DNA of 64,000 nt from an uncultured Arachnia sp. (GCA_947499145.1 CANMNB010000001.1:865-64864); one strand, 5' to 3'. Positions 1-16,878 are shown, counted from the stretch's first letter. Translations and numbers: made by a program. Notes: a model not told the origin generated them from the sequence alone.

Positions 1-663
1 CTGATGCGGATCAACGGGCTCCGCGGTGTCAGCAAGGCCAAGGCGCCTCGTACGACGATCCCGGCCGGCGCGCCGACGCCGGAGGACAAGGTGAATCGCC
101 AGTTCACCGCGCAGGCGCCGGATCGGCTGTGGGTGGCCGACATCACCTACGTGCGCACCTTCGCCGGCTGGGTGTACGCGGCGTTCATCCTCGACATGTG
201 CACCCGCATGATCGTCGGCTGGCAACTGTCGACCAGCCTGCACACGCGGTTGGCGTTGGATGCCCTCGACATGGCGATCTGGTCCAGACGACGCCAGGAT
301 CGCGACCTGTCCGCCTTGATACATCACTCCGACAAGGGCGTTCAATATCGTGCCATCCGCTACACCCAGCGTCTGGCCGACGCCGGCGTCGTGGCGTCCG
401 TCGGGTCGACCGGTGACAGTTACGACAATGCCGCAGCCGAGGCGTTCAACTCGCTGTTCAAGAGCGAACTGATCCGCAACCGCGGCCCCTGGCACGGCAT
501 CAGCGATCTCGAGTTCGCGGTCGCCGAGTACCTCGACTGGTACAACCACCGACGGCTCCACGGCGAGATCGGATACCAGCCACCCGCCGAATACGAGGCA
601 ACGTTCTACGATCAACCACAACCGGCGAGCTCACCCGAACTCGCAACAACCGGGAGCCTCTAG
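1..663 (+). CDS. IS3-family transposase OrfB, C-terminal part (DDE/rve domain)
   Basis: Motifs WVADITY, HHSDKGVQY, SYDNAAAEAFNSLFKSE and YNHRRLHGEIGY. The frame is open from the window edge. Confidence 0.95.
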   Translation: MMRINGLRGVSKAKAPRTTIPAGAPTPEDKVNRQFTAQAPDRLWVADITYVRTFAGWVYAAFILDMCTRMIVGWQLSTSLHTRLALDALDMAIWSRRRQDRDLSALIHHSDKGVQYRAIRYTQRLADAGVVASVGSTGDSYDNAAAEAFNSLFKSELIRNRGPWHGISDLEFAVAEYLDWYNHRRLHGEIGYQPPAEYEATFYDQPQPASSPELATTGSL

Positions 664-681
664 AAAACCCGGGGCGATACA
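654..681 (+). repeat. IS3 right terminal inverted repeat (IRR)
   Basis: 28-bp sequence ending in CA, overlapping the transposase stop codon. Confidence 0.85.
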
Positions 682-2031: not shown

Positions 2032-2213
2032 CCCCCACACCCTTAGAACCCAACGCAGGGACCAACGCGCAGCCACCCACAGTGGTAACAACCGGCCATC
2101 GCAGCAAGACTGTCGATTGGACGGTGACGCTGCCGACGCACACCCGCGACACGCAAAGTCAGACCTCATCCCGATGCTGACCCACCCCACCCCTAATCCG
2201 CCAGGAGAAATCA

Positions 2214-2975
2214 ATGCCCACAGTCCCACCAGAGGTAGCCGCGCGGATCCGCCGGAACCCAGAAACCAAGCACCATGTTGTCGAAGGTTCCACACCGGTC
2301 CCCTTTTTTGGGAACCAGCCCGAGGCACAGCTCGCCACGGTGGGTATCAACCCGAGCCGAATCGAGTTCCAGACATCGCGATCTCGGATCGAACTCGACG
2401 GTCCGTCACGGCGATTCGAGACACTGAAGAGCTTGGGGATCAACTCGAACGCCGAGGCCGACGACGCCCAGGTGGCGGCCATCTACGCGCGCTGCATTAG
2501 GTACTTCGACGACACCGCGGTGGCTTACTGGGATTGGTTCAAGCGTCTCGAATGGATCATCCAACCACTCGCCGGTGTGAGCTACACCGACGGGTCCGCC
2601 TGCCACCTCGACCTCGTGCAGTGGGCCACGGACCCTGTTTGGTCCGGGATCAAGGACCGCGAGGTGAGGACGAGCCTGGCGGCCAAGGATCTCGAGTTCC
2701 TGTTAGGGCAACTCGCCGCCCCGCAGTTGAGGATCGCCTACCTCAATGGCGCCCAGGTTGCCACAGTTCTTGGCAGTCTCATCCCGATCGAAGACCGCAG
2801 AGCCACCTTCCGCGATGGGACGCGCTGGTCCTTCTACAAGGGACAGTACGAAGGCACTGCCATCGTCGGCTGTTCTGCCTTCATCCAGAACGCACATATC
2901 AGGACAGAAGACAAGGCGGCCTTCAACGAATGGATCGCCGCTGAGTGCCGAAAAGACCTCGACGCACTGGACTAG
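2214..2975 (+). CDS. Uracil-DNA-glycosylase-like fold protein (uncharacterised family)
   Basis: AGGAGA RBS. STPVPFFGN...ATVGINPS..EF resembles UDG superfamily motif 1 (GxNP), followed by CHLDLVQWAT. The fold call is an inference. Confidence 0.65.
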   Translation: MPTVPPEVAARIRRNPETKHHVVEGSTPVPFFGNQPEAQLATVGINPSRIEFQTSRSRIELDGPSRRFETLKSLGINSNAEADDAQVAAIYARCIRYFDDTAVAYWDWFKRLEWIIQPLAGVSYTDGSACHLDLVQWATDPVWSGIKDREVRTSLAAKDLEFLLGQLAAPQLRIAYLNGAQVATVLGSLIPIEDRRATFRDGTRWSFYKGQYEGTAIVGCSAFIQNAHIRTEDKAAFNEWIAAECRKDLDALD

Positions 2976-3118
2976 AACCCCCACTTCCGTTCGCCCGGGT
3001 TGAAGCTCCCCGAACGAAGGCCAGAATCGGCGCATTCGGAGACGGACGGGTCTGCTGCACGACCGGGTGACATCAGCGTTGGGAGCCACTCCCCTGTCGC
3101 TCATCACTGCCTCAAGCA

Positions 3119-3144
3119 TGGGCATAGGTTCGCCGTGCAGGCGG
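3119..3144 (+). repeat. Dispersed att-like repeat, copy 1
   Basis: TGGGCATAGGTTCGCCGTGCAGGCGG; 23/26 identical to copy 2 and 22/26 to copy 4. Confidence 0.85.
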
Positions 3145-3307
3145 GGACGTGAACGCTGTGCAAACCGGGGAGCTTCTCCGCCCCTTTCACCGTCGATCGC
3201 GGCATGAGCGGATGCCTCCGCCCGAGGCAGGGAGACCGGCTCCCAGTCCACGGCGCAGGGCGCAGTCCAAGTGGCCCACCGGGTGGAGCGCCCATCGGAC
3301 CGCGCTG

Positions 3308-3802
3308 TCAGTGTTGCTGGAACCCTGCTCGGGTGTAGAGCGCGAGAGCCGCTGGGGAAGTGCCCTCGCCGACGCGCAGCGAGAGGGTGTCATCCCCGGC
3401 CCGCGCGCAGGCGTGCACCGCTGTGTCGAGCAGGGCTCGGGCGACGCCCAGGCCTCGCGCGTCGGGATGGACGAAAAGGTCGATGATGAAGGGCCCCTCC
3501 AGCTGCGGGTCCCAGATCGACTTATCTACCACCAGGATCGCACCGACGGGTCGGTTCTCAATGGTGGCGACCCGGGTCAGGTCGTGGCGGAGTACGCCGA
3601 ACTCGTCGGCGAAGGTGTCGTCCATCTCCTGCTGGGCCTCGCTCAGGCTGGTGGCCGCGACACCGGGCGGGTATGCCGCGAGATAGGCGGTGGCGAGGGC
3701 GTCGCGATCAGACGTCTGGATGCATCGGAGCTCGACGGCGTCGATGCTGGCGGGAGTGGTTGTGCGACCGGTGAGGGAGAGGGTCATCAGGTCAGAGGGC
3801 AT
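3308..3802 (-). CDS. GNAT family N-acetyltransferase
   Basis: Acetyl-CoA motif LFVHPDARGLGVARALL, then ALALYTRAGF. Start set at the internal ATG 3802. Confidence 0.88.
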   Translation of the reverse strand: MPSDLMTLSLTGRTTTPASIDAVELRCIQTSDRDALATAYLAAYPPGVAATSLSEAQQEMDDTFADEFGVLRHDLTRVATIENRPVGAILVVDKSIWDPQLEGPFIIDLFVHPDARGLGVARALLDTAVHACARAGDDTLSLRVGEGTSPAALALYTRAGFQQH

Positions 3803-4056
3803 GGTTGTTCCGTTCGAGTCGATGGGCGTTGGTGGTCTGTCATCAGGAACGGAACATGGGCCCATCGTAGGCACCGGTCAGCTTTATGGAGAAGTCGAGG
3901 GGCTTTCGGCGGTTGCGGTTAGGTTGACTGCCAGACGGCGTCGGGGTCCCTTAGAGCCAGGGGATGGCTCGCCGGTCCGCGTCGCCGAGAGCGGCAAATC
4001 CGCGTGTTCCGTGTCGCCACCTCGGAGGTGTCACTGTCGCGCTCTAGCCTGACCCC

Positions 4057-4773
4057 GTGACTCCTTTTAGTTCATTGCCCGTCCGCGAGGTGGTCGGTGA
4101 CTCCGGTGAGGATGATCAGGGCTGGCCGTTCACCATGGGCGCAGTGAGGCAACTGCTGTCAGACGGGCTGGAGCTGTCCTGGTTGACGGTCCTGGTCGGG
4201 GAGAACGGGGTCGGGAAGTCCACCATCATCGAAGCAATCGCCATGGCATACGGCCTGAGCCCCGAGGGCGGCAGCACACACCTGAGGCCCTCGGAGCGTC
4301 CCACCGAGTCGCCGCTGCACGCACGGATCCGGCTGGTGCGCGGCCTTTCCCGTTCCCGCTGGGGGTACTTTCTGCGCGCCGAGACCATGCACGGACTGAT
4401 CACTTTCCTCGAGCAGAACCCTGGCGCCGACAGTCGCTACCACGAGCGCTCGCACGGCCAGGCGTTCACCGAGCTCCTCGACACCAAACTGGAACACATG
4501 TCCCGCAGGGGCGGATTCCTGGTTCTCGACGAACCGGAGGCCGGGCTCTCGATCGTGACCCAGATCAAACTGGCCAACCTCCTGACGGAACTACGCCACG
4601 ACGGCATCCAAGTGCTGATGGCCACCCACTCCCCGATCCTCACCGCCACCCCAGGCGCCCGCATCATCGAACTGGACGACGACGGACTCAACACCCGTGC
4701 CTGGAAAGACCTGATGACCGTGGCGCTGTACCGACGGTTCCTCGCCGACCCCGGCTACTTCGGCCTGGAGTGA
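4057..4773 (+). CDS. Predicted ABC-like AAA ATPase (COG3910-type)
   Basis: Walker A GENGVGKS, signature SHGQ, Walker B LVLDEPE and H-loop ATHSP. TAGCCT-N6-GTG leaderless promoter supports the start. Confidence 0.88.
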   Translation: MTPFSSLPVREVVGDSGEDDQGWPFTMGAVRQLLSDGLELSWLTVLVGENGVGKSTIIEAIAMAYGLSPEGGSTHLRPSERPTESPLHARIRLVRGLSRSRWGYFLRAETMHGLITFLEQNPGADSRYHERSHGQAFTELLDTKLEHMSRRGGFLVLDEPEAGLSIVTQIKLANLLTELRHDGIQVLMATHSPILTATPGARIIELDDDGLNTRAWKDLMTVALYRRFLADPGYFGLE

Positions 4774-4908
4774 ACACGCGCCACCGCGCAGAGCACGATC
4801 CAGACGCAGCACATCCGGATTGCTCAGTACCAGGCATTGGCGCAGCTGTTGCTCAGCCAGCACGACTGCTCACTTCGCGCCAGCACATCAGAGGTTCCGG
4901 CGTCTCCT

Positions 4909-5214
4909 TCAGCTTCCAGACGCGAATGCAAACAGTAGCGACGGAACACTCAGGAGAGCCCACGTTCCCATCAGGTAGCAGATCGCGAGGGAAACCAAAG
5001 CCAGACCCCTGCCGCGATCTCCCCGGCACTTGATCTGCTGCAACGCGACGTGCCCAGCACCCACGCCAAAGACAGCGACCGAGATAAAGCCGAACCCGAA
5101 CATCCCACCGAGCGCCAGCAGCGACAGCAGGAGCGAAGCCACAGCCAACTTGTTCACCACAGGTGACGGTACCGACTCAAGGCCGATCGATTCCGTAGTC
5201 CAAGCAGTCGCCAT
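4909..5214 (-). CDS. DUF4190-like small membrane protein
   Basis: LAVASLLLSLL...GHVALQQIK.RGDRGRGLAL pattern; TAGTCT-N6-ATG leaderless start. Confidence 0.75.
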   Translation of the reverse strand: MATAWTTESIGLESVPSPVVNKLAVASLLLSLLALGGMFGFGFISVAVFGVGAGHVALQQIKCRGDRGRGLALVSLAICYLMGTWALLSVPSLLFAFASGS

Positions 5215-5527
5215 GACTGAAGACTAGGACACCAGCGGGCGACTGAGGTGAGGCCACGGAGTTTCCGCATCGGCCGGGCCCAAGGAGCCATCGACCAAGA
5301 TCCCCCGAGGGGCCATTGGCCATTGGTCTCGACAGCAATCACCATTGCGGCTTGCGGCATGTCAGCGCAAAGACGAATACGACTTCAAGCTTCGGTCGGG
5401 CAACGCTCCCGTTCGGAAGAAGGCACAGATGTGCGGTGAAGATCAGCGCCGCCTGTCATCAGAACGACTGTCAGTCGTCGCTTCGTGAGCGAGTCTCCTG
5501 GGCTGCAGCCCGGCTTGTGTCGAATGT

Positions 5528-5582
5528 TTGACACAACGCTTCTGAGCGTCTAATCTTGGCTTGTAGCAATCCTTTGATACAA
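5528..5582 (+). promoter_or_regulatory. SigA-type promoter plus palindromic GntR/YtrA operator
   Basis: TTGACA (5528-5533), 17 bp, TAATCT (5551-5556). Followed by the inverted repeat TTGTAGCAA-tcct-TTGATACAA (5561-5582, 1 mismatch). Confidence 0.8.
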
Positions 5583-5594
5583 GATCGGGGTCCC

Positions 5595-6473
5595 ATGTCT
5601 CTTTTAATAGTCTCGGCTCTCATCGGTGGTCCGCTGCTTTTGACGGTGATCGCGCTGGGGGCGCATTCGGCGGCACGCGGTGCCCCCGACACGCGCAGCG
5701 AGTGGAAGTGGGTTCGCGCGACCTGGGTTGCGGCTGCCTTCATCGGCGGCGTGGCCGCATGGCTCGTCAACGGCAGCCTTGACCTGGGTCGGGGAACGAT
5801 GCTGGCTCCTGCCATTGTCGGCCTCTTTATGGTCACCGGAGTTGGTCTCGCTGAGACTGTGGTGCGACCGCGGCGACCGACCGGTCCGCGGACTGCTTCG
5901 CTTGCTCCCCGTCGGGTGGTCAATTACCTGCCGAGGGCACTCACCACCGCGGTCACCGGGATCACGGCGGTGCACCTCGCCACGCTAGCCTTGACCACTG
6001 CGTCCGCCTCCGCCGACGACATGGGACGCGCCGGACGGCAGATCGCGGCGCGTTGTGGCAACGTCGGCAATGGAGCCGGTCCCTACCCGGGCAGCTTCTA
6101 CTCCATCCCGCTCACACTGCTGCTCCTGGGCGTCGGGCTGGCGGCCGTGGCAGCGTTGGTGGCTGTCGTGCGTCGGCCACGCGGTTTCGCGAATGACGAA
6201 GTGAGCGACGACGTGTTGCGCTTGCGGTCGATGACACGGGTGCTGGCTGCGACAGGTGCGGCTGTGGCGGCCAGCCACGTGGGCGTCGCATTCTTCGCAG
6301 GCACGGCGCTGCTCAGGATGGACTGTCAACGCGCCTGGATGGCCCCGGCGGGTTTTGTGCTCGTGGCGACCATCCCCGCGGCCCTTCTGCTGCTCGGCTG
6401 GTTTCTCGCCCGGATCGTCGGCCCCGGAGCGCTCCCCGCTCTCTCCACTGCCTACCCGGCGGAGATGCGATGA
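5595..6473 (+). CDS. Multi-pass membrane protein co-transcribed with a YtrA-type regulator
   Basis: About 7 hydrophobic segments; ATGA overlap with the GntR gene. Confidence 0.8.
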   Translation: MSLLIVSALIGGPLLLTVIALGAHSAARGAPDTRSEWKWVRATWVAAAFIGGVAAWLVNGSLDLGRGTMLAPAIVGLFMVTGVGLAETVVRPRRPTGPRTASLAPRRVVNYLPRALTTAVTGITAVHLATLALTTASASADDMGRAGRQIAARCGNVGNGAGPYPGSFYSIPLTLLLLGVGLAAVAALVAVVRRPRGFANDEVSDDVLRLRSMTRVLAATGAAVAASHVGVAFFAGTALLRMDCQRAWMAPAGFVLVATIPAALLLLGWFLARIVGPGALPALSTAYPAEMR

Positions 6474-6844
6474 GCCTCGTCCTGACCCTCGACCCCGACG
6501 ATCCGACCCCACCGTACGAGCAACTGCGGCGGCAGCTCGGCGACCTAATCGCCGCTGGACGGCTCGGCCCCGGCGACCGACTCCCCCCGCTGCGCCAGCT
6601 CGCCGGTGACCTCGGGGTCGCCGTCGGCACGGTCGCGCGCTCTTACCGTGAACTCGAGCAGGAGGGACTGCTCACGTCCCGGCGCGGCGGCGGCACCCGC
6701 GTAGCCGAGTCCGGCCGAGCCCCTGCGGTGAACCGGCAAGAAATGCTCGAGGGCATGGCTGCGGACTTCGTCGCACGGGTCCGCGGGTTGGGCTACACCG
6801 ACGACGAGACCGTCGTGGCCCTGGAGCGGCAACTCCGCTTCTAG
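6470..6844 (+). CDS. GntR family (YtrA subfamily) transcriptional regulator
   Basis: PPYEQL...GRLGPGDRLPPLRQLAGDLGVAVGTVARSYRELEQEG; 124 aa, the short YtrA size. Confidence 0.92.
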   Translation: MSLVLTLDPDDPTPPYEQLRRQLGDLIAAGRLGPGDRLPPLRQLAGDLGVAVGTVARSYRELEQEGLLTSRRGGGTRVAESGRAPAVNRQEMLEGMAADFVARVRGLGYTDDETVVALERQLRF

Positions 6845-6999
6845 CCACCAGCTTTGCCTCCGATCAAAGCGACGCTCTCGCTAGAGAATCAGGGTCTGTA
6901 TCAGTCAATTGCACGGCATGAATCAGACAGATTGCAGGCTCGCACATCGGCATGCCAGGGCGTCGCGGGACGCGATGGGCGAAGTTTCCCGCACGACCA

Positions 7000-7042
7000 T
7001 GGGCATAGGGTCGCAATGCAGGCGGGCGCTAGACACTCCCCA
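7000..7042 (+). repeat. Dispersed att-like repeat, copy 2
   Basis: TGGGCATAGGGTCGCAATGCAGGCGG followed by GCGCTAGACACTCCCCA; TGGG...CCCA ends. Confidence 0.85.
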
Positions 7043-7085
7043 CATCGGACGAATCAAACACGGCTGCGCCGCGCCTCTTGCCGAA

Positions 7086-7127
7086 CCGGGATGGGCATAG
7101 CAGGCGGATGCACAGCACTCATCCCGG
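7086..7127 (+). repeat. Dispersed att-like repeat, copy 3 (10-bp internal deletion)
   Basis: TGGGCATAG|CAGGCGG-ATGCACAGCACTC, flanked by the perfect IR CCGGGATG/CATCCCGG. Confidence 0.65.
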
Positions 7128-7190
7128 CTTCCGTCTTGGTTCAGCACTTGGCGCATCAGGACCTGCTGGGGCAGTACAGCTCGGGCGATG

Positions 7191-7817
7191 TCAATGGAGT
7201 TTCACGATTCTGTCGGCGTACTCACGCGTCCGTGTAATCCACTCCGCGTTCACCTCGTCAATCGTGCTCACCCAGTCCCGAGCAGCTGACGGTGTCTTGC
7301 CGAACTCAATGTGACGGTGGATCAGGCGCCGTATGCGGGTCTCACTGTCTACTTCTAGGAACCACGTCTCGTCCAGTTCGGCTCTGATCTGCAACCACGG
7401 CTCGTGCTGGAGAAGGAGGTAGTTGCCTTCTGTGATGAGGATTTCCACATCATGGGGGATGCGGATCGCGCCGGCGATCGGTTGCTCCAGAGTTCGTTCG
7501 AAGGCCGGCGCGTACAGGGTGCCGCCCCGCTCACTCCTGGCCCGGCGGAGGAGGTGCAGATATCCCCAGGCGTCGAAGGTTTCCGCTGCTCCCTTCCTCT
7601 CCAACAGGTGCTGGCGATCCAGTTCTTCGTCGGCTAGGTGAAAGCCATCCATGGGAACGTGCGAGACCGTCAGTCCACGATCACGCAACCTGCAGGCCAG
7701 CTCGTGCGCTAGTGTCGATTTGCCCACCCCCGGACAGCCAACAAGGCCGAGTATGTAGGGACTGGAATTGCCCATGCGATGTCTCGCCAGCAGTTCGGTC
7801 ACCAGCTCATCAGTCAT
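7191..7817 (-). CDS. Nucleoside/pantothenate-kinase-like P-loop kinase (FrcK-like)
   Basis: GLVGCPGVGKST, MDGFHL, KGAAETFD, ITEGNYLL, RLIHRHIEFGK. Confidence 0.85.
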   Translation of the reverse strand: MTDELVTELLARHRMGNSSPYILGLVGCPGVGKSTLAHELACRLRDRGLTVSHVPMDGFHLADEELDRQHLLERKGAAETFDAWGYLHLLRRARSERGGTLYAPAFERTLEQPIAGAIRIPHDVEILITEGNYLLLQHEPWLQIRAELDETWFLEVDSETRIRRLIHRHIEFGKTPSAARDWVSTIDEVNAEWITRTREYADRIVKLH

Positions 7818-7830
7818 TGGCGTTTCTCCA

Positions 7831-7885
7831 GCCACTTCGACACGTGCTTGAGACTAGGGACTCACTAAGCACGTGGCGAAGTGGC
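7831..7885. terminator. Long intergenic stem-loop between the aldolase and kinase genes
   Basis: GCCACTTCGACACGTGCTT...AAGCACGTGGCGAAGTGGC; 19-bp stem with one mismatch. Confidence 0.55.
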
Positions 7886-8007
7886 ATCGCCATTGCGACT
7901 TCCGCCTGAGAGGAGCCTGGCGTCGTCAACTATGGGGATTCGACCCCGCTGCACGACGCTTGCTCTTAGTGCGCCATCTTGCGTCGGCCACTCTTGCTGA
8001 GGCCCGG

Positions 8008-8634
8008 TCAGCCTCTGGGTGACGTAGTTCGGAGGCTCTTGATGACGAGCTCCAGTTCACCTTCCCGGGCAACGGAGGAGCCCATTGCGACTGCCGAGGC
8101 TCCGTCACTTAGGAACGAAGCCGCGTTACTGCTGCTGATTCCCCCCGTTGCGACGAAGGCGGCATCGGGGAAGGGTCCGTGCATGTGCCTTATCCACTGC
8201 GACCCAAGGGATTCTGCTGGGAAACACTTGAGCCACGTGTGGCCAGCCTTACGCGCAAGCTGGACATCGGTTGGGCTGGACACTCCTGGGAGGTAAGGGA
8301 GACCAAGGGAAGCTGCGGTGAGGGAGATCTCAGGATCAAAGCCAGGACTTACAGCGAAGCTGGCTCCGGCGTCCGCTGCTCTCCTCATGCTGTCAGGGTC
8401 AGTGATGGTTCCTACCCCGACGCTCGTTCCGCGCGCTTCGGCAAAGCTGGCCAAGGCTTCGAGTCTTTGCAGGTCTGTCTCAGATTGGTATGGGATCTCC
8501 ATGACCTTGACCCCGAGAGACCATGCCAGCTCGGCTAGCCTCAAAGTCTCATCGAAAGGGATTCCGCGCACGATCAGCATGAGGGGCATCTCGGCGAAGC
8601 GGGAGCGGAAGAACTCATCAGTGGATTGGGTCAC
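8008..8634 (-). CDS. eda: KDPG/KHG aldolase
   Basis: VGVGTI, FAVSPG, YLPGVSSPTD, LKCFPA (Schiff-base Lys), FVATGGI. GTG start after a GGAGG RBS. Confidence 0.88.
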   Translation of the reverse strand: MTQSTDEFFRSRFAEMPLMLIVRGIPFDETLRLAELAWSLGVKVMEIPYQSETDLQRLEALASFAEARGTSVGVGTITDPDSMRRAADAGASFAVSPGFDPEISLTAASLGLPYLPGVSSPTDVQLARKAGHTWLKCFPAESLGSQWIRHMHGPFPDAAFVATGGISSSNAASFLSDGASAVAMGSSVAREGELELVIKSLRTTSPRG

Positions 8635-9532
8635 CCGAATCCTCCTCATCGTAATCGCGTGTGGTCAGTAGGACTGCGGCAGCTCGGGCGTGACCTGCTT
8701 CGAGTCTGGCGCGAGATCCCTGTCCGGCGCAAAGCTCGCTTAAGAACCCCGCCGCGAAGGCGTCGCCGGCGCCGACAGCTTCGATGACTGATACATCTCT
8801 CGCAGCGGAGAAAGTTCGACCTTCCGAGGAGAACTCCCAGGCGCCGACCTCGCCGTCTTTGACGACCACCATTTCCGGTTCCGGCAATAGTTCTCTTACG
8901 TCCTTGGGGGAATCGCTGCCCCAGAGTTCCTCTGCTTCGTCGAGTCCCACGAAGACCACGTCAGCCTTATTCGCCAGGGACAGAAGTTCCGAGGCGGCCT
9001 CACCATTTTCCCATAGAGCAGCGCGGAAGTTGACGTCAAAGCTGACCAAGAAGGGTCTGTCGCGGGTCTCCAGAAGTTGGGCCAGCATCTCACGAGCTGA
9101 TCCCGAGAGTGCGGCTGTGACCCCAGACACGTGGACTACGCAGGCATTGTCCAGCTGAGGGCTTTTAAGCAGCGCAGGACCCAGCATTGAGCCGGCAGAG
9201 CCGGATCTGTAGTAGTAGACACCTACGCCGGGCTCCTTGAACATGACCCCCGTGGGCGCGGATCGGTCGACCACTGCACCGCCGACGTCCACTCCCCTGC
9301 GAGATAACACCGAAAGGATGCGGCGTCCCAGCGGATCATCCCCGACTCTGCCTAACCAGGATGACTTGCGGCCGAGTCGGGCTAGATGGCTGGCGACATT
9401 CGCCTCTGCACCCGCCACGTCTAGGAACACTTCCTCCGCACTCGCCAGTGATTCGGCGCGGGGCGGTGTGACGGAGATCATCGTCTCGCCGATCGCCACC
9501 ACAACCTGGTTGGTCCTGATGCGAAGCGTCAT
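8618..9532 (-). CDS. PfkB family sugar kinase (2-keto-3-deoxygluconate kinase-like)
   Basis: IGETM, GAEANVA, FDVNFR, GAGDAFAAG. Confidence 0.9.
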   Translation of the reverse strand: MTLRIRTNQVVVAIGETMISVTPPRAESLASAEEVFLDVAGAEANVASHLARLGRKSSWLGRVGDDPLGRRILSVLSRRGVDVGGAVVDRSAPTGVMFKEPGVGVYYYRSGSAGSMLGPALLKSPQLDNACVVHVSGVTAALSGSAREMLAQLLETRDRPFLVSFDVNFRAALWENGEAASELLSLANKADVVFVGLDEAEELWGSDSPKDVRELLPEPEMVVVKDGEVGAWEFSSEGRTFSAARDVSVIEAVGAGDAFAAGFLSELCAGQGSRARLEAGHARAAAVLLTTRDYDEEDSGDPIH

Positions 9533-9602
9533 GGCAAATCCCGGGTGCCCGTCATGTTCACCCCATCACCCGCGAGCCTCGTGGCGAGGACTTCGCCCGG
9601 TT

Positions 9603-10805
9603 CTACCAGTCATGGACGGTTCCATCCCGGAGCTCGTTGACCGGCAAGTACGAGGCAGAATACGGATGCCGCTCGGCGAGCGCGTCGTCGTAGTCGACGC
9701 CGAGGCCGGGTCGCTCTCCCGGAGTCAAGTAGCCGTCTTTCAGTTCGAAAGCAGGGTTGAACAGTTCCATCGTGCTCTCGCGGTACCCCCCGTATTCTTG
9801 GATGCCAAAGTTGTGGATGGACACGCCTAGATGGATGGCAGCCGCCATGCCCACGGGTGACACGTCTTCCGGCCCGTGCATGCCCGACCGGATGTGGAAG
9901 GTTGCAGCGAAATCCAGAGCCTTCCGCATCGCCGTCACTCCGCCGCCATGGGTTACCGACATTCTGAGGTAGTCGATGTATTGCTTCTGCAGGATCTCCT
10001 GCGCGTCCCAAAGCGTGTTGAACACCTCACCGATGGCGAGCGGTGTGGTCGATGCTGACCGTACGAGCCTGAGCGCCTCCTGGTTCTCCGCTGGCGTGAC
10101 ATCCTCAAGCCAGAAGAGTCGGTACGGTTCGAGGTCCTTGGCCAAGCGAGCCGCTTCGATAGGCGAGAGGCGATGGTGCACGTCGTGGAGCATGGGAACT
10201 TCCGCACCAAACTCGTTCCTAGCGGCCTCAAACATCGAAGGCACAAACCGCATGTAGGCCGGCGTGTCCCAAACTTCGACCAAGGGCTTCGCAAAACCGG
10301 CAGTATGGCCTGCTGCGGTACCCACCCCGTAGATGTCTGCAAGACCAGGGATGCCCACCTGCAGACGGATAGCCTTGAAGCCTTGCTCCTGCCTCCGCCG
10401 GACAGCGTCGAACAGTTCGGGGATATCACGTCCGGTGGCATGGGTGTATGTCAGCAGGTGTCGTCTTGTTCGGCCGCCGAGGAGCTGATACAACGGCACG
10501 CCGAGCGACTTGGCCTTGATGTCCCATAGGGCCATGTCGATGGAAGCGATGGCGGCCATCGTGACAGGTCCTCGTCGCCAGTACGCGCCGCGGTAGAGGT
10601 ACTGCCAGATGCGTTCGATGTTCTCTGCCTCCACCCCCTCTAGCAGTGGGGCAAGGTGGTCCTTGACGTAGGATGCGACCGCCAACTCTCGTCCGTTGAG
10701 GGTAGCGTCGCCCAAGCCCACGACCCCATCGTCGGTGGTGATGCGGGTCGTCACGAAGTTGCGGCCCGGGCAGGCCACGAGAACCTCGACGTTGCGGATT
10801 TTCAT
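9603..10805 (-). CDS. manD: D-mannonate dehydratase family enolase-superfamily enzyme (RspA/ManD)
   Basis: CPGRNFV, GDATLNGRE, GAYWRRGPV, HDVHHR, FWLED, AIGEV, NFGIQE, RDGTVHDW. Confidence 0.9.
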   Translation of the reverse strand: MKIRNVEVLVACPGRNFVTTRITTDDGVVGLGDATLNGRELAVASYVKDHLAPLLEGVEAENIERIWQYLYRGAYWRRGPVTMAAIASIDMALWDIKAKSLGVPLYQLLGGRTRRHLLTYTHATGRDIPELFDAVRRRQEQGFKAIRLQVGIPGLADIYGVGTAAGHTAGFAKPLVEVWDTPAYMRFVPSMFEAARNEFGAEVPMLHDVHHRLSPIEAARLAKDLEPYRLFWLEDVTPAENQEALRLVRSASTTPLAIGEVFNTLWDAQEILQKQYIDYLRMSVTHGGGVTAMRKALDFAATFHIRSGMHGPEDVSPVGMAAAIHLGVSIHNFGIQEYGGYRESTMELFNPAFELKDGYLTPGERPGLGVDYDDALAERHPYSASYLPVNELRDGTVHDW

Positions 10806-10839
10806 TCGAGTCCAATCAGGTGTGTGGGTGGGAGGCTTC

Positions 10840-11709
10840 TTAGCCCTTGGTTGCCCCAGCGGTCAGTCCGCCGACGACGTACCTCTGCGTGAACAGGGAG
10901 AAGACGACGATCGGCGCGCTCATGACGGCAGCAGCCGCCATCAGTCCTCCCCAGTCGATACTGGCGTAGGCCATGAACTGGTAAAGCGCTACAGGCAGGG
11001 TCATGGTTGAACTGTCGGCGAGCACCAAGGAGAAGAGGAAGTTGTTCCAACTAAAGATGACAGCGAGGATTGCCGCAGTCGCGATGCCGGGAACCGAAAG
11101 CGGCAGCGATATACGAAGGAAACATCCAAACTCTGTGAGCCCGTCGACCTGCCCTGCCTCGTCAAGTTCCTGCGGGAGGGACCTAAAGAACCCGGTCATG
11201 ATCCATGTGACTAGGGGAAGGCCGACGAACATGTGACTGGCGATCAACACCCAGAAGGTGCCTACCATGCCCGCCCTAGAGAAGAGGTAGTACCACGGCA
11301 CGAGCAGGAGGATCGCCGGCACGACACGTGCCAGCAGAATCACGCCGTTGAGTTTACCCATGCTGAACCGTGCGATTGACCAGGCGGCCGGGACCCCAAC
11401 AACCAAGGAAGCCGCAGTTGAGGCGACGGCAACAATGATTGAGTTCCTGATGAACAGCGCATAGTTGTTTGTCTCGAACACCCGCTCGTAATTCTGCAAA
11501 GTGGGATCGAAGATGAAGGTCTTCGAAACATCGCTAATTTGCACGTTGTTCTTGAGAGACGCCAAGACCATCCACACATATGGGAACAGGAAGACAAGTG
11601 CGATGATGATCAAGAGGGTGAAGCGGATGACTCGGTAAGTCTTTGCGGAGCGACTCGTCCGAGGCCCTCGGCCTCGTCCCATCTTGGACTGTTGCTGTGT
11701 CAAAGTCAT
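10840..11709 (-). CDS. Carbohydrate ABC transporter permease (MalG-like)
   Basis: EAA loop ELDEAGQVDG, WNNFLF, 6 TM segments. Confidence 0.93.
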   Translation of the reverse strand: MTLTQQQSKMGRGRGPRTSRSAKTYRVIRFTLLIIIALVFLFPYVWMVLASLKNNVQISDVSKTFIFDPTLQNYERVFETNNYALFIRNSIIVAVASTAASLVVGVPAAWSIARFSMGKLNGVILLARVVPAILLLVPWYYLFSRAGMVGTFWVLIASHMFVGLPLVTWIMTGFFRSLPQELDEAGQVDGLTEFGCFLRISLPLSVPGIATAAILAVIFSWNNFLFSLVLADSSTMTLPVALYQFMAYASIDWGGLMAAAAVMSAPIVVFSLFTQRYVVGGLTAGATKG

Positions 11710-12599
11710 TAGAACTCCTTGGTGGAACGGCGTACCGTGATCACGGCTGCGGCTAGGACGAAGACGAAGAACAAGACAAGAATCGCCGCAGCGAGTCCGT
11801 ACTCCATGTAATCGAAGCTCAAGCCGTACACGTAGACGTTCAGAGTCTCGGCCTCATTAGAAGAGCCACCGCCGGGGCCTTTGGTCGCGTAGATGAGGTC
11901 GAAGGTCTTCAGGGCATCGATACCGCGCAGGACTGCGGCCACGATGATGGTGTTCCTCAGGAGTGGAAGTGTCACGTGACGGATTCGTTGCCAGGCGTTG
12001 GCGCCGTCAATCAGGGCCGCTTCCTCAGGATCTTCCGGAAGGCCGGCCAAGCCCGCGAGCATGATCAGGACGATCAACGGAGTCCACTGCCAGACATCAA
12101 TCGCGATCAGCGTTCCAAATGCTTGGCTTGGTGAGGTTAGCCACCCTTGTGGCTCCACGCCGAGGCGGCCGAGGGCATTGTTTACGAATCCGATGTTGGG
12201 GTCGAGCATGAGGAGCCAAACTGCTCCGACAGCCACTGGACTCGTTACTAGCGGAATCATGATCACCGTTCGGATGGCCTTGTCACCCCGGAAGGGTCGG
12301 CGGAGCAGCAGCGCAATCGAGATTCCCAGGACCAGTTCCAACGAGAGTGCTCCGAGGGTGAAGAGCGCGGTCCGCCAAACCGCTGGCCAGAATCGGTTCG
12401 TGTCGGTCAGGGCAGCAGCGTAGTTCTCAAAACCGTTGTACGGTGCCGGGCCTGCTGAAGCAGGACCTGAGGTGTCGGTGAGGCTGAGATTCAGCGTGTA
12501 GAGGATGGGGAACAGTATGAGGCCTGCGATGGTAAGCAGGGCGGGCAGGACCATGCCCCAGCTGAGGAGCCGGGATCTAGTCTTTCGGCTGAGGGTCAT
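11709..12599 (-). CDS. Carbohydrate ABC transporter permease (MalF-like)
   Basis: DVWQWTP, EAALIDGANAWQ, TLPLL. Confidence 0.93.
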   Translation of the reverse strand: MTLSRKTRSRLLSWGMVLPALLTIAGLILFPILYTLNLSLTDTSGPASAGPAPYNGFENYAAALTDTNRFWPAVWRTALFTLGALSLELVLGISIALLLRRPFRGDKAIRTVIMIPLVTSPVAVGAVWLLMLDPNIGFVNNALGRLGVEPQGWLTSPSQAFGTLIAIDVWQWTPLIVLIMLAGLAGLPEDPEEAALIDGANAWQRIRHVTLPLLRNTIIVAAVLRGIDALKTFDLIYATKGPGGGSSNEAETLNVYVYGLSFDYMEYGLAAAILVLFFVFVLAAAVITVRRSTKEF

Positions 12600-12616
12600 C
12601 TTGCGCCTATCTTGGA

Positions 12617-12652
12617 GGTGAGGCCGCCCCTTGGTCAGAGGACGGCCTCACC
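12617..12652 (-). terminator. Stem-loop after the solute-binding protein gene (mRNA stabiliser or partial terminator)
   Basis: GGTGAGGCCG...CGGCCTCACC inverted repeat between the SBP and permease genes. Confidence 0.6.
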
Positions 12653-12668
12653 CGGGATCTAGTAGGGA

Positions 12669-14009
12669 CTACGACTCTGCGCCTGTCGCGGTGGCGTCCT
12701 CCTCGAGGAACTTCTCGAGTTCAGCCTGGGCTTCATCTGCCGCCTTCTGCACGTCGCCACCCTGAATCGCCACGACGAGAGGTCCGCCGACAATGTCACG
12801 GGCGCGACCAACCTGAACCACGAGAGGACGGTCATGTCCGATTCCGTTCTCGGTCGACACACGCATTGTCTCCGCGAAGTCCTCCGGGATACCGGAGAGG
12901 CTCTCAGGGTTCTCCCAGACACTGTTCCGTGCCCCGAAGACGCCCGCCTTCTGAAGGTCTAGCACCATTTCCTCACTGACTGCCCAGTCGATGAACTCCC
13001 ACGCCATGTCCGCGTTGGGGGAGTTCTTGTTGATGCCGAGGCCCCAGGAGGGAACGCTGTACGGGTGAGAACCGGCGGGTCCTGCCGGAAGTGGGGCGAC
13101 CCCGAGGTCCTCTTCTGCGATGGTGGAGGTTCCCTCCTTGATCAGTTCGGACCAGAAGACCTCCGCGTCGATGTACATTGCGAGCTTGCCCTGCTGGAAG
13201 AGCGGATTGAGCTGCTCCGTGCTCATCGATTCTACGCCAACTGGTCCGTATTCCCGCAGCAGGCGGCCATACGTCTCGTAAGCCTGGACAGCCTCAGGCG
13301 TATTGACCGAAGCCTCTCCGTCAGTGATGAAGTCACCCCCGTGGCTGTAGAGGAAGCCAGAGAACTGAGTCACGGCGGGGGAACGCATCCCCCGCATCCC
13401 GTACCCGAAGAGCCCGGAATCGGGATCATGGAGGGCAGCTGCTGCTTCCTCTAGTTCTTCCATAGTGGCAGGGGCTTCGAGGCCCGCCTCAGCGAAGAGA
13501 TCCTTGCGGTAGAACAGGACCTCTCGTTCCGTCACGATGGGAACGCCGTACAGGCCGTCCTCGTATCGGAGCGTGTTCATCATGGACTCCTGGAAGTCAT
13601 CGATGTTGAACTCGCCCTCTGCGTAGTCAGTGAGTTCCAAGAGCCATCCGTTGCGGGAGAACTGGAGTGCTTCCTGCAGCGGCCGATACATCATGACATC
13701 GAGATCATCGGCCTGCGCGTTCAGGCGAACGTTGTACATGGTCGACAACTGGTCCGCTTGGAAGGAGCTCAAGTCGACCTTGACGCCATGCTCTTCCTCA
13801 AATTCAGGGATGCGCTCCTTGATGTAGTCAGTCCAAGGGTGGTTCGCAACAGCGACTCGCAGCACCTCAGTGGTGGCAGCATTCGTCTCTTCGGACGGCG
13901 CGGCGGCTTCTTCGGCTCCGTTGTCTCCATCGCCGCACGCGGTGAGCGCCAAGGAGACGGCGCAAGCCAAACCTGCGAGCCTCCCGATCTTACTTAGGTT
14001 TCGCGACAT
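12669..14009 (-). CDS. Sugar ABC transporter substrate-binding lipoprotein
   Basis: Signal peptide with lipobox LALTAC; CUT1 SBP motifs (LFYRKDL, PATMEEL). AAGGAAGG RBS before ATG 14009. Confidence 0.92.
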   Translation of the reverse strand: MSRNLSKIGRLAGLACAVSLALTACGDGDNGAEEAAAPSEETNAATTEVLRVAVANHPWTDYIKERIPEFEEEHGVKVDLSSFQADQLSTMYNVRLNAQADDLDVMMYRPLQEALQFSRNGWLLELTDYAEGEFNIDDFQESMMNTLRYEDGLYGVPIVTEREVLFYRKDLFAEAGLEAPATMEELEEAAAALHDPDSGLFGYGMRGMRSPAVTQFSGFLYSHGGDFITDGEASVNTPEAVQAYETYGRLLREYGPVGVESMSTEQLNPLFQQGKLAMYIDAEVFWSELIKEGTSTIAEEDLGVAPLPAGPAGSHPYSVPSWGLGINKNSPNADMAWEFIDWAVSEEMVLDLQKAGVFGARNSVWENPESLSGIPEDFAETMRVSTENGIGHDRPLVVQVGRARDIVGGPLVVAIQGGDVQKAADEAQAELEKFLEEDATATGAES

Positions 14010-14069
14010 GTCGCGGCCCTTCCTTTCTAATTGGCTCAGCTTTGAGCACATTATCTTGCGGAAAAATCA

Positions 14070-15209
14070 TCACCATTCGGCGAATGAGCCGTCCCGGTGC
14101 GCATAGTAAGGAGAATCCCACTTCCCATCGAATTCTTGGTTGCGCAAGGCGTCTTCGTCCACTTCGATCCCCAACCCCGGATTGTTCGAAACTCGAATGA
14201 ATCCGTTCTCGATCTGAAATGGAGTAGTGAGCAGACCATGTCCCAGATCTCTGCCGTCTCCCATGCCAGGATGCTCCTGAACAAGCAGATTGGGGATAAC
14301 AGCACCGAGCTGGAGGCAGGACGCCAAAGACACCGGCCCAAGCGGGTTGTGGGGCGCTACCGAAACGTAATCAGCTTCTGCCATACCCGCGATTAGCCGC
14401 GTCTCGAATATACCGCCGGCGTGGCAAAGGTCAGGCTGAACGACATCGACGGCACGTTCTCTCAGCAGCTCCGCAAACCCAAACTTGGTGAATATGCGTT
14501 CACCCGAAGCAATCGGAACTGATGTTCGGCGGCGGATCTCCCCCAAGACGCTGGGACGCTCTGGAAGGCACGGTTCCTCGACAAAGGCCGGTCGATAAGG
14601 CGCGATGGCTTCGATCAGTGAGACCGCCATCGCGGGGCCCACACGGCCGTGGAAGTCGATGGCTATGTCAACCTCTGGGCCCACCGCCTCACGCAGACTC
14701 GAGAAGCGGCGAGCCTGTTCGTCCACATAGCGCTTAGTGTCGATGATCTCTACGGGGCCAGGGAGGGCCGTCTTGACCATGGTGAAGCCCGCAGCCTTGG
14801 CAGCTATTGCTGTGGAGACCAGCTCTTCAAGGCTGTCGGAGCCCCCGCCGACGTGGGGATACATCCTGATTCGGTCCCGTACACGCCCCCCAAGCAGGTC
14901 TGCGACCGAGCAGTTCAAAGCCTTCCCGCTGATGTCGTACATCGCCTGCTCGAGACCGCTGATCGCAGACACCAGCACCGGACCGCCCCGGTAGAAGGCA
15001 GAGCGGTACATGTGTTGCCAATGCTGCTGGATGCGCCGAGGATCCTTACCGACGAGGTACTCGCTCAGCTGATCGACCATCGCAGCCACCACGCGGCTTT
15101 GGCCCTCGACCACGGGCTCCCCGTACCCGGTAACACCCTTATCGGTACGGACCTCAACAATGAGCCACCGCGGCTTCACATGGAACACTTCAACTGACGT
15201 GATCTTCAT
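14070..15209 (-). CDS. dgoD: Galactonate dehydratase
   Basis: MKIT....PRW...TD.G..G.GEP..EG, FYRGGP, DFHGR, FVEEP, SGER, QPD, HNPLGP. Confidence 0.88.
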   Translation of the reverse strand: MKITSVEVFHVKPRWLIVEVRTDKGVTGYGEPVVEGQSRVVAAMVDQLSEYLVGKDPRRIQQHWQHMYRSAFYRGGPVLVSAISGLEQAMYDISGKALNCSVADLLGGRVRDRIRMYPHVGGGSDSLEELVSTAIAAKAAGFTMVKTALPGPVEIIDTKRYVDEQARRFSSLREAVGPEVDIAIDFHGRVGPAMAVSLIEAIAPYRPAFVEEPCLPERPSVLGEIRRRTSVPIASGERIFTKFGFAELLRERAVDVVQPDLCHAGGIFETRLIAGMAEADYVSVAPHNPLGPVSLASCLQLGAVIPNLLVQEHPGMGDGRDLGHGLLTTPFQIENGFIRVSNNPGLGIEVDEDALRNQEFDGKWDSPYYAHRDGSFAEW

Positions 15210-15982
15210 CGCCGCTCCTCCGCGTGGACATTGCCATCTAGCAGCTGGCCGCCCACTCCGACACTGATCTGGGACACCGCTTCCCGTATCACGGGGAGCT
15301 CGCCTTCCAATGCGTCAAGGTCGGCGAGCGCCTTCAGCGCCGTGACGGACAACGCAGCCTGCACGCGTCCTCGGGCATCGAATATGGGAAGCGAGACACA
15401 GTTCACATAGGGCTCGTGCTCGCCGTCGTCGATGGCCCAGCCTCGCACGCGCGTCTGCTCCAACTCCGCCGCGTACTCCTCGCGGGAAGTGATGGTCGTC
15501 TCGGTGTAGCGTCGAAAATCACAGCGGGAGATCAGTCGGCTGCGCTGGGCAGGGCCTGCGTAGGCAAGGATGGCCTTGGCGACACCCGAGGTATGCAGTT
15601 CGACAGGCGTTCCGATTCGGGAGTGCATTCGAAGCGCTCCAGCCCCTTCAACCTTGTCTACATACACAACTTCGTCATCAACGAGTTGCGCCAAGTGAAT
15701 CGTGTGTCCCAGTTGACGGCTAAGCGCCAAGAGATGCTCATGGGCAACCTCTCTGAGGACAATCGAGTCAAGCGCACGGTTGGCGGCGGCTATGAGGGCG
15801 AATCCTAGACCCCATTTGGAATCCTGAGTCCTGCGCGCGTACCCACGCCCTTCCAATGATTGGAGGAGGCGGAGGGCGGTCGAGCGGTGAACCTCTAGCG
15901 CCTGTGCAATCGCGCTCAGTGCCATGGGCCTCTCGGCGATGAGGTCGAGGATGGCTAGTCCCCGTTCTAGAGATTGAGACAT
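15206..15982 (-). CDS. IclR family transcriptional regulator
   Basis: MSQSLERGLAILD..., HRSTALRLL HTH, SGVAKAILA, GWAIDDGEHE. Confidence 0.93.
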   Translation of the reverse strand: MSQSLERGLAILDLIAERPMALSAIAQALEVHRSTALRLLQSLEGRGYARRTQDSKWGLGFALIAAANRALDSIVLREVAHEHLLALSRQLGHTIHLAQLVDDEVVYVDKVEGAGALRMHSRIGTPVELHTSGVAKAILAYAGPAQRSRLISRCDFRRYTETTITSREEYAAELEQTRVRGWAIDDGEHEPYVNCVSLPIFDARGRVQAALSVTALKALADLDALEGELPVIREAVSQISVGVGGQLLDGNVHAEERR

Positions 15983-16006
15983 CGTCGCCCCCTCTGTTGC
16001 CTAATT

Positions 16007-16022
16007 TGCACATCCATGTGCA
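16007..16022. promoter_or_regulatory. Palindromic candidate IclR operator
   Basis: TGCACAT-CC-ATGTGCA, 25 bp upstream of the iclR start codon. Confidence 0.6.
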
Positions 16023-16286
16023 CTTGATGCACAGCCTAAGAGGGTCCGACGTGAGCTGTCAACCACGACACCGATCGAGGCTGGTCCACGTTGGACAGCA
16101 GCAGTGCCGTCTTGTACAACATGGGAACCCGGGGCTGGCCAGACGAACTGTCGCCGATCGCACGAGGCTCCAGCGTGCGTCCGGTCGAGACCCCATGACA
16201 TTGGTTTGGCATCGATCGCCGGCTGTAGCCTCGGCCCACTCACCCGATGACACACAACCGGAGGTTGCAGGGCGCCGGGCCGAGAG

Positions 16287-16335
16287 CTGGGCATAGATTC
16301 GCGATGCAAGCGGTGCACGAACACTCTCTACCCAG
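16287..16335 (+). repeat. Dispersed att-like repeat, copy 4 (most symmetric)
   Basis: CTGGGCATAGATTCGCGATGCAAGCGGTGCACGAACACTCTCTACCCAG. The dyads CTGGG/CCCAG and TGCA/TGCA are both centred on 16311. Confidence 0.85.
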
Positions 16336-16509
16336 TCTCATAGAGCGCCCCAAGGGAGCCCGAACCTTGAGCAGTCCGAGAGCATGACACGGGCTGTGTG
16401 ACGCAAACAGCATGCTGGCTCTACCCAGGTGTACACCTAGGCTCGCCACCCAAGTGGGGTCCGTGCCGCCGAAGGAATGGCCTGCTTGGCGGACTTTGGC
16501 TAGAAGTCT

Positions 16510-16878
16510 ATGCAGGCGGGAGCCGGCACGTTGTCGACGACGCACTCGCACTCGGCAACGTCCACCATCGACCGTCTGGCGGCGCGCGTGGCTCAATCGG
16601 GAGTGATCAGCATCGACGAGGCGATGCGCCAGATCGCGCACAACATCAACTTCATCGTGCACGTGATGCTGGTGGACGACACGTGGCGCGGTGGGACGAG
16701 GCGTCGCTTCGTGAGCGAGGTCCGGCAGCTCACGGGAAGCATCGAGGACAGTCGGCCCACCACCCACCTTGTCTACCGGGCAGCGACGGCCACAGCTCCG
16801 GAACTCTTCCACCCGGAGGCTGCGATGGCCGCCGAGCTGGCTCCGTTCGATCCGGGGGTGGCGGAATGGAGACGGTGA
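16510..16878 (+). pseudogene. tadA: 3' remnant of Tad/Flp pilus assembly ATPase TadA/CpaF
   Basis: MQAGAGTLSTTHSHSA...IDRL...RFVSEV is the post-Walker-B part of CpaF. Walker A and B are absent, there is an in-frame TAG at 16501, and a GTGA overlap with tadB. Confidence 0.85.

Follow-up and report, generated by a model that had tools for sequence, protein, structure and literature searches.

The window studied here is a stretch of 64,000 nucleotides (C1:865-64864) from the 2.88-Mb, 26-contig genome of an uncultured Arachnia sp. In its left part, a low-GC island that carries several copies of a short repeat adjoins the truncated gene of the Tad-pilus ATPase CpaF; the GC content is 0.59-0.65 up to ~16 kb of the window and ~0.70 beyond. 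The repeat motif TGGGCATAGRKTCGCNRTGCARGCGG occurs at 3119-3144, 7000-7025 and 16288-16313, each time on the plus strand and with 0 mismatches in a pattern search, and a fourth, co-oriented copy with a 10-bp deletion is found at 7092-7107 (TGGGCATAG, followed directly by CAGGCGG). The copies with their conserved surroundings are referred to as units. The window's own genome is designated G000, and G003, G011, G215 etc. are other genomes compared, drawn on as a genus set of 68 genomes (Tessaracoccus) and a family set of 400 genomes. The crossover codon is CAG or CAA, and arm positions are counted outward from the crossover. The units, the attachment (att) joints of the island and the gene remnant are as follows:

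3048..3204 (core 3119-3144), plus strand: copy 1, type A extended unit, with left arm CATGGGCATAGG and cpaF-like core CGTGCAGGCGG
6958..7047, plus strand: copy 2, type B unit, with a left flank of 40 nt (6958-6997) and the unit proper at 6998-7047, core AATGCAGGCGG
7092..7129, plus strand: copy 3, with the 10-bp internal deletion and a flanking inverted repeat GGGATG.../...CATCCC
16286..16335, plus strand: copy 4, dyad-symmetric unit, with left arm CTGGGCATAGA and its inverted copy TCTCTACCCAG at +16..+26 from the crossover codon
16488..16520, plus strand: attR, right junction of the whole island, with element arm GGCGGACTTtggctagaagtct and then core ATGCAGGCGGG (16510-16520)
16510..16878, plus strand: C-terminal 116 codons of cpaF/tadA (MQAGAGTLSTTHSHSA...), found by tblastn against the CpaF C-terminus of Tessaracoccus rhinocerotis (77% identity, E 3e-49)
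C22:2427-2417: attL, the partner junction, gaggcgATGCAGGCAGGcgctagaattgtcttcAAGCCCGCC

In four relatives, an intact gene for a CpaF/TadA-type ATPase of ~480 aa directly abuts the T2SSF gene on its upstream side. In the window genome, this gene is split: its 5' part, the N-terminal 370 codons, is located on contig C22 (C22:3525-2389), stops after ...GEVRGAEASAMFEAMQAGA and ends in a short junk tail, and its 3' part runs from window position 16510. The sequence ATGCAGGCNGG marks either end of the island (contig C22 and window position 16510), and both cpaF joints carry ATGCAGGC[A/G]GG, with attL reading gaggcgATGCAGGCAGGcgctagaattg... and attR ...ggctagaagtctATGCAGGCGGGagccggc. At this site, the intact gene of the relatives has gaggcgATGCAGGCSGGsgcsggmacg, and the internal copies show NRTGCARGCGG in the same place; this right half of the repeat is identical to the cpaF codons for M-Q-A-G. 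Altogether, attL and attR share 11-14 bp, the arms beside both ends form the inverted repeat AAGyCCGCC at 13-16 nt from the core, and GCTAGAA recurs as a direct arm repeat at the island ends. Since the halves of cpaF are split at a target-derived core that is found on both ends, the island is inserted in cpaF with this core at either end. It comprises at least 20 kb (C22:1-2416, an assembly gap and C1:1-17373) and holds the four repeat copies in cpaF orientation between unrelated cargo blocks. Genes for a Phd/YefM-like antitoxin and a ParE-like toxin adjoin attL (C22:1013-2107). Contig C1 ends 864 bp left of the window in a 77-bp sequence that is shared by several contig ends (C1:1-77, C22:1-77, C10:1-77, C11:34968-35044 and C25:1782-1858). 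This 77-mer is the edge of a multi-copy, unassembled repeat that hides the island interior, and it possibly links the low-GC contigs C10, C11, C9 and C26.

Other members of the genus carry insertions at the same place. While cpaF is intact in 62 of the 68 genus genomes, it is interrupted at the same residue in G000, G011 and G215. The insertion in G215 is a 40-kb prophage (G215:C1:2968600-3008648) with a 504-aa large serine recombinase at attL. G011 harbors a 23.6-kb island (G011:C1:1522491-1546123) that is oriented oppositely to the G215 insertion and carries a serine recombinase at attR, and the 5' part of the G011 cpaF has already decayed by frameshifts and a stop. Both enzymes possess Resolvase, Recombinase and Zn-ribbon domains, either begins with its start codon within the att arm, and no more than 2-3 bp are common to the joints. 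In G215, the arms form a perfect 13-bp inverted repeat (CCATGGGTATAAC), the reconstructed attP measures ~58 bp, and the recombinase is at most 35% identical to its phage relatives. The cpaF codon is thereby shown to be a recurrent serine-recombinase integration site in the genus, a hotspot within the catalytic domain of CpaF at which insertions with three different types of att are found in 3 of 68 genomes. Every such insertion disables a surface organelle that serves adhesion. A limited literature search revealed no report of cpaF/tadA as a serine-integrase attB. With defined attP and attB, the G215 and G011 enzymes could each supply a new serine integrase/att pair for genome engineering.

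The original prediction, made from the window sequence alone, had described the repeat as 26-47 bp in length and had proposed that its copies are site-specific recombination sites left by the accretion of cargo modules, comparable to an integron or a tandem island array. The three full copies and the shortened one were recovered as described, and 100 dinucleotide shuffles, by which the chance expectation was gauged, gave 0 matches to TGGGCATAGRKTCGCNRTGCARGCGG. The pairwise identities of the full copies (23/26, 22/26 and 22/26), the continuation of copies 2-4 as CACTC..CCC and the dyads of copy 4 (CTGGG/CCCAG and TGCA/TGCA, centre 16311) are likewise present. The conserved unit proved longer than predicted: ~40 bp are common to all nine known copies in three genomes, and the 'type A' copies share up to 157 bp (window 3048-3204), which in copy 1 corresponds to conserved flanks of ~70 nt upstream and ~60 nt downstream. 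The 'type B' copies display a different common left flank of 40 nt; that of copy 2 is also present in the T. rhinocerotis unit rhin_b, and the core of copy 2 is followed by GCGCTAGA, as at attL.

Relaxed whole-genome scans confined the motif to the first 17 kb of C1. A species-level scan for the exact motif (one genome per species, 185,579 species) returned only T. rhinocerotis and Tessaracoccus sp. OS52, beside one coincidental match. The latter (Steroidobacteraceae) and the metagenome matches were dismissed as coincidences inside a coding sequence, and collections of phages, plasmids and viral contigs contained no unit matches. A unit profile detected no further full copies over the 68 genus genomes, and weak matches in other genera (G214, G254) were discarded because they are located in ordinary genes. 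A dispersed repeat of the repetitive extragenic palindromic (REP) or miniature inverted-repeat transposable element (MITE) type, an outcome that the prediction had set against its own proposal, was rejected: the island copies are the only ones in 2.88 Mb, and the repeat is absent from 65 of the 68 genus genomes.

OS52 possesses three copies at a spacing of 2.2-2.5 kb, and T. rhinocerotis two copies that lie 640 bp apart around one ~80-aa open reading frame (ORF), plus a diverged third copy (rhin_c) elsewhere. The copies of both species are clustered, co-oriented and situated in low-GC stretches around unrelated cargo. Copy 1 is 82-84% identical to units of OS52 and T. rhinocerotis over 110-163 bp, with no relationship in the DNA on either side; nothing but the units is common to the loci of the three genomes, for which one adjacent ORF pair was compared and proved unrelated. 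Relics of cpaF of 39-110 bp accompany the units of T. rhinocerotis, one at C1:113727 (E 7e-4) and one at L022:7726-7836 (E 0.02). These fragments (MFDGVQVGAGTL... at L022:7726-7836 and AMFEAVQAGAGALS at G257:C1:113727-113765) belong to low-GC islands far from the intact cpaF. Unit b of T. rhinocerotis is found 36 bp beyond the gltD stop. In the window genome, a core-like sequence (cgTGCAGCCGGac, C7:~164945) lies downstream of gltD at about the same distance from the stop; it may be a secondary site or a chance occurrence. In addition, a small contig of G283 (C126, locus L076, ~1504, minus strand) shows an AT-rich arm followed by GCCATGCAGGCGGGGGCATCGACCCTG (AMQAGASTL), which is relic-like.

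The unit contains a TAnnnT-like hexamer (TAGGTT/TAGGGT/TAGATT) and partial dyads, as might be expected if the island genes had in common a regulatory element, such as an operator, promoter or terminator, or an RNA element such as a small RNA. However, its position relative to genes is inconsistent: because the genes that flank copies 1-3 converge and those that flank copy 4 diverge, a promoter, a leaderless start or a simple terminator was rejected. Such a role would also leave the identity to the cpaF split point unexplained, and this reading is considered close to refuted, with hardly any probability left to it. Nor do the units behave as a structured RNA. With z from -2.0 to +1.0, their folds are unremarkable and vary from copy to copy, the covariation term amounts to -0.25 and -0.06 kcal/mol, and no Rfam family was found in the units at gathering or at E<=1. 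A small ORF within the unit was discarded for want of a conserved reading frame, the frames differing between copies. A dif/Xer site of the kind used by integrative mobile elements exploiting Xer (IMEX) or pdif modules was excluded as well, as the unit arms match those of the host dif candidate AAGTCCGATAA-GCGACA-TTATGTCAGTT at ~4/11 and 2/11 positions. The likely chromosomal dif, AAGTCCGATAAGCGACATTATGTCAGTT at C3:10533-10560, is the only good dif-like pattern match in the genome. Finally, the integron analogy of the original prediction did not stand: there is no IntI-type tyrosine recombinase or attI beside the arrays, as all PF00589 matches in the three genomes are far from the arrays or on other contigs, an attC-type fold is lacking, and the modules are multi-gene on both strands.

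The left and right parts of the unit resemble different things. From CATGG to the CAG/CAA codon, there are 24 nt in the units as well as in the attR of G215 and of G011, with no gaps:

unit c1: left arm to crossover CATGGGCATAGGTTCGCCGTGCAG, right of crossover GCGGGG
G215 attR: left arm to crossover CATGGGTATAACCACCATGTACAG, right of crossover GTGGGA
G011 attR: left arm to crossover CATGGTCATAACTCTATCATCCAA, right of crossover GCTGGA

In this fixed-register, ungapped comparison, the unit left arm matches the arm of each relative at 12/21 positions. Relative to a null set of all 151,026 genomic 21-mers that precede CAG or CAA, a score of at least 12/21 has P = 1.6e-3 (G215) and 7e-4 (G011); for the outer 12 nt, where 9/12 match, at least 9/12 has P = 1e-4 to 4e-4. 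The left-arm motif CATGGGCAT occupies positions 16-24 from the crossover. In attP half-sites of serine integrases, which measure ~25 bp and show pseudo-dyad symmetry, the distal motif that pertains to the zinc-ribbon domain is located at 16-24, and in attB it is shifted 5 bp inward (PMC3783163). In copies 2-4 the left-arm motif returns inverted at about +16..+26. Copies 2-4 therewith look like P-O-P' joints, and the right halves of type A appear more like the cpaF side. A profile of the nine units matches, over its positions 24-52, the intact cpaF site of G405, G382 and G399, and rhin_b (GCC CTG CAA GCG GGT GCA CGA ACG CTT) agrees in frame with G405 (GCC ATG CAG GCG GGC GCA GGA ACC CTC) at 21/27 positions. 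The unit as a whole is not plain decayed cpaF, a possibility that was rejected because local alignment and a cpaF DNA profile reach only the core plus ~13 nt. The proviso of the prediction that all copies might be remnants of one protein-coding gene family is partly true, in that the right part of each copy is cpaF-homologous; this homology identifies the target site rather than refuting a recombination site. A recombinase-gene stub in the type A left flank was also considered and dropped: the resemblance of GATGTCACCCGG to GACGTCACCCGT of G011 and the ATGnCCATG start context are short and non-significant, and the unbiased profile gave no link.

It is moderately probable that the units are att-type joints, now relics, of a composite island at the cpaF hotspot. 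Each copy would then be a joint of mobile elements that integrate site-specifically in cpaF at the A-M-Q-A-G codons. Its left 24 nt (CATGGGCATAGGTTCGCNRTGCAG) would represent the element-side, attP-type half-site, and the next 18-27 nt (GCGGGnGCnnGAACGCT) would copy or mimic cpaF just 3' of the crossover. The composite island would have been built at the hotspot by serial integration beside a resident element, or by fusion of element remnants, much as composite islands of the staphylococcal cassette chromosome (SCC) arise at rlmH through Ccr serine recombinases. The enzyme class behind the units would most likely be that of the large serine recombinases, because such enzymes sit at two other cpaF joints and because the arms of these joints resemble the unit left arm. 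Moreover, the copies are most likely relics without activity that were later carried from place to place inside larger islands, since no cognate recombinase came to light and only one of the three arrays is still in cpaF. There is only a slim chance that the array is still active. The prediction that recombination-type sites lie within a composite, horizontally acquired island was largely right in kind: the split of cpaF at ATGCAGGCNGG and the use of the same codon by serine recombinases in relatives speak for such sites, and the recombinase is, as had been anticipated, not encoded in the window, where Pfam reveals none.

Several observations weigh against att-type joints of serially integrated elements. 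No cognate recombinase was found in the window or near the OS52 and T. rhinocerotis arrays, and T. rhinocerotis has no Resolvase-domain gene at all. The serine recombinases of the window genome (on C9 and C3) show neither a unit-like arm nor a cpaF-like core at their starts, and the C9 enzyme is only 42% identical to that of G011. The arrays of OS52 and T. rhinocerotis are not in cpaF, and the stretch of the island between C22 and C1 is missing from the assembly. The true attR arm of the island (16488-16509) matches the unit left arm at only 5/21 positions, an unbiased type A unit profile has no match to the att regions of G011 or G215, and model R1 (the unit profile) found none in the G011 and G215 genomes, so that the likeness of the arms depends on the fixed register in which they were compared. 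In addition, the type A copies of the three species are ~83% alike and closer to each other than to any cpaF, so they descend from one ancestral site and not from independent integrations. Recombination of attP with attL or attR lies outside the repertoire of canonical serine integrases (PMC3783163), so that serial accretion would need a relaxed behavior like that of the Ccr recombinases or another route.

The 13.3-kb contig C9 (GC 0.657) encodes three serine recombinases (219, 397 and 492 aa), a Mu-like transposase/ATPase pair and an ABC transporter, and is probably part of another mobile element.

The island ends could alternatively be those of a tyrosine-recombinase element, in which the identity of 11-14 bp and the arm repeats (GCTAGAA direct, AAGyCCGCC inverted) would constitute lambda-like core and arm sites. 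The shared sequence is indeed longer than the 2-3 bp at the serine joints of G011 and G215, although some serine integrases also have common cores of ~12 bp. Non-Xer tyrosine recombinases are encoded in all three unit-bearing genomes. One of them is found on C11, which shares the junction 77-mer, 1.6 kb from the contig end, and a tyrosine integrase of T. rhinocerotis lies ~12 kb from rhin_c. Yet no type is common to the three genomes, which counts against the att-type joints as well. As the unit left arm furthermore matches the serine-recombinase arms in register, a tyrosine recombinase is an improbable source of the island.

The gene content around and between the units, as assigned by Pfam, is as follows:

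1..3047: left island part in the window, with an IS3-like transposase and two unknown ORFs
4-663, plus strand: rve-domain transposase, IS3-like (orfA/orfB on C1:266-1527), by Pfam
727-2031 and 2214-2975, plus strand: two unknown ORFs
3205..6957: cargo module between copies 1 and 2, with GNAT, AAA_21 ATPase, 305-aa ORF and GntR genes
3308-3874, minus strand: GNAT, by Pfam
4057-4773, plus strand: AAA_21 ATPase, by Pfam
5556-6473, plus strand: 305-aa ORF
6470-6844, plus strand: YtrA-like regulator of the GntR family, by Pfam
7130..16285 (genes 7191-15982), all genes on the minus strand: cargo module between copies 3 and 4, a cluster for sugar-acid catabolism and transport, GC 0.59-0.61
from 16398, plus strand: Tad genes (T2SSF), by Pfam

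The sugar-acid cluster encodes a P-loop kinase-like protein, a KDPG aldolase, a PfkB kinase, two MR_MLE proteins (enolase superfamily), an ABC transporter and an IclR protein. The modules hold 1-9 genes on both strands and are 0.09-9 kb long; no tRNA was found near the copies. These gene blocks (unknown ORFs, then GNAT-ATPase-305-aa ORF-GntR, then the sugar-acid cluster, then the Tad genes) corroborate the claim that the copies fall at module boundaries, while two gene labels of the prediction, 'UDG-like' and 'DUF4190', were not confirmed by Pfam.

The prediction had further suggested checking whether strains lacking a module are empty exactly at the repeat. In the comparison of module boundaries, G003, which is without a unit, carries window 5357-6954 (the 305-aa ORF and the GntR gene) at 95.4% identity, compared with ~67% for orthologous DNA. 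The homology stops at 6957, the outer edge of the extended unit of copy 2. The 9-kb sugar-acid module has no block-level homologue in the 400 family genomes and offered no such comparison. In G003, the two-gene piece of 1.6 kb, which extends from promoter to terminator, is located at G003:C1:~1089976-1091573. The degree of identity indicates that it was exchanged horizontally and recently between the window genome and G003, and that the module between copies 1 and 2 is a mosaic. As judged from the sequence, its boundary shows the unit to be a discrete block appended to exchangeable cargo, without placing a crossover at the core.

Such mosaicism also fits an origin by homologous recombination. 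In this scenario, all units would be relics of one old joint, and a patch of ~160 bp (an element end plus a cpaF stub) would have offered homology for the RecA-dependent, Campbell-type insertion of incoming DNA, circular or linear, that bore such a patch too; with every block added in this way, the patch would have been duplicated. The type A flanks, which are shared over 110-163 bp at 82-84% across three species and resemble cpaF less than they resemble one another, would be explained in this way, as would the 95% identity of the YtrA operon to the unit-less G003 and the insertion sequence (IS) elements inside the islands; that canonical serine integrases cannot target attL or attR points in the same direction. 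However, the sequence common to copies 2-4 measures only ~40-80 bp, with still less in copy 3, a short length for homologous recombination to work efficiently. At the outer ends, the core is cleanly duplicated at the target codon and the arm motifs are inverted, which is a site-specific signature, and in relatives, serine recombinases demonstrably make use of this hotspot. Insertion via a RecA patch is for these reasons unlikely, albeit not negligible.

In contrast to the relics of the preferred reading, the units might still be part of a live cassette system, in which a recombinase encoded elsewhere, be it within the unassembled island part or on another replicon, would excise and reinsert unit-bounded modules singly or together, like Ccr, and would thereby switch cpaF and the Tad pilus. 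The units are well conserved, with a mean column identity of 75% over 60 nt across three species, and copies 2-4 retain a dyad in which the arm motif occupies the attP-type position. The island is partly unassembled, with the C11 tyrosine recombinase close to the 77-mer, and a precedent exists in SCC, whose recombinase-less cassettes are moved in trans (PMC11470126). On the other hand, a cognate enzyme was identified in none of the three genomes, copy 3 has lost 10 bp of its left half-site, and the arrays of OS52 and T. rhinocerotis are away from cpaF. The split 5' part of cpaF has its junk tail, and that of G011 has already decayed. Such a system is accordingly rather unlikely. Similarly, we give little credence to its most far-reaching form, an SCC-like cassette system in Actinomycetota whose recombinase-less modules would be shuffled in trans at cpaF, the array being gained or lost, and would thereby reversibly switch the Tad pilus off and on. 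If true, it would combine a gene switch of the 'active lysogeny' type with a cassette platform.

Among known systems, large serine recombinase elements that reside in protein-coding genes include A118 in comK, the skin element in sigK and SPbeta in spsM. The G215 prophage and the G011 island in cpaF are alike in having a recombinase at the joint and a crossover of 2-3 bp, and the island of the window uses the same codon. Each of those is a single element bounded by one attL and one attR, whereas four extra internal units are present here and the ends share 11-14 bp. Integrons (IntI, attI, attC) likewise have co-oriented, imperfectly palindromic repeats between unrelated cargo. In the units, by contrast, the sequence itself is conserved and not only a folded structure, the repeat derives from the target gene, IntI and attI are lacking, and the modules are multi-gene and of mixed orientation (0.09-9 kb). 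Direct repeats of a target core also delimit the elements of tandem islands at the 3' ends of tRNA or other genes that arise by tyrosine-integrase accretion, e.g. SGI1 (PMC2297512). These elements normally keep their own integrase, whereas here no module has one and the left arm points to the serine class.

The closest known system is the SCC composite island, in which Ccr serine recombinases act at rlmH and recombinase-less cassettes bounded by target-derived att sites move in trans (PMC11470126). Like SCC/SCCmec (Ccr, rlmH/orfX; PMC11470126), the cpaF island is inserted in a conserved chromosomal gene, has several co-oriented target-derived att-type sites and carries accessory genes in tandem, unrelated cargo cassettes, many of them without their own recombinase, along with a toxin-antitoxin pair. 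It differs in belonging to another phylum (Actinomycetota, Tessaracoccus), and no ccr-like gene was found with it. The insertion hits internal codons of a catalytic domain, so the gene is broken and not preserved. In addition, the units have long conserved flanks (up to 157 bp), and the arrays of two species lie away from the target gene. The cpaF island presents an array of att-type units that derive from the target and enclose cargo lacking a recombinase, in organisms other than the staphylococci and enterococci of SCC. Active units would extend the SCC principle of one recombinase serving a train of cassettes to Actinomycetota; inactive ones would still provide a clean worked example of att relics that record the history of an island.

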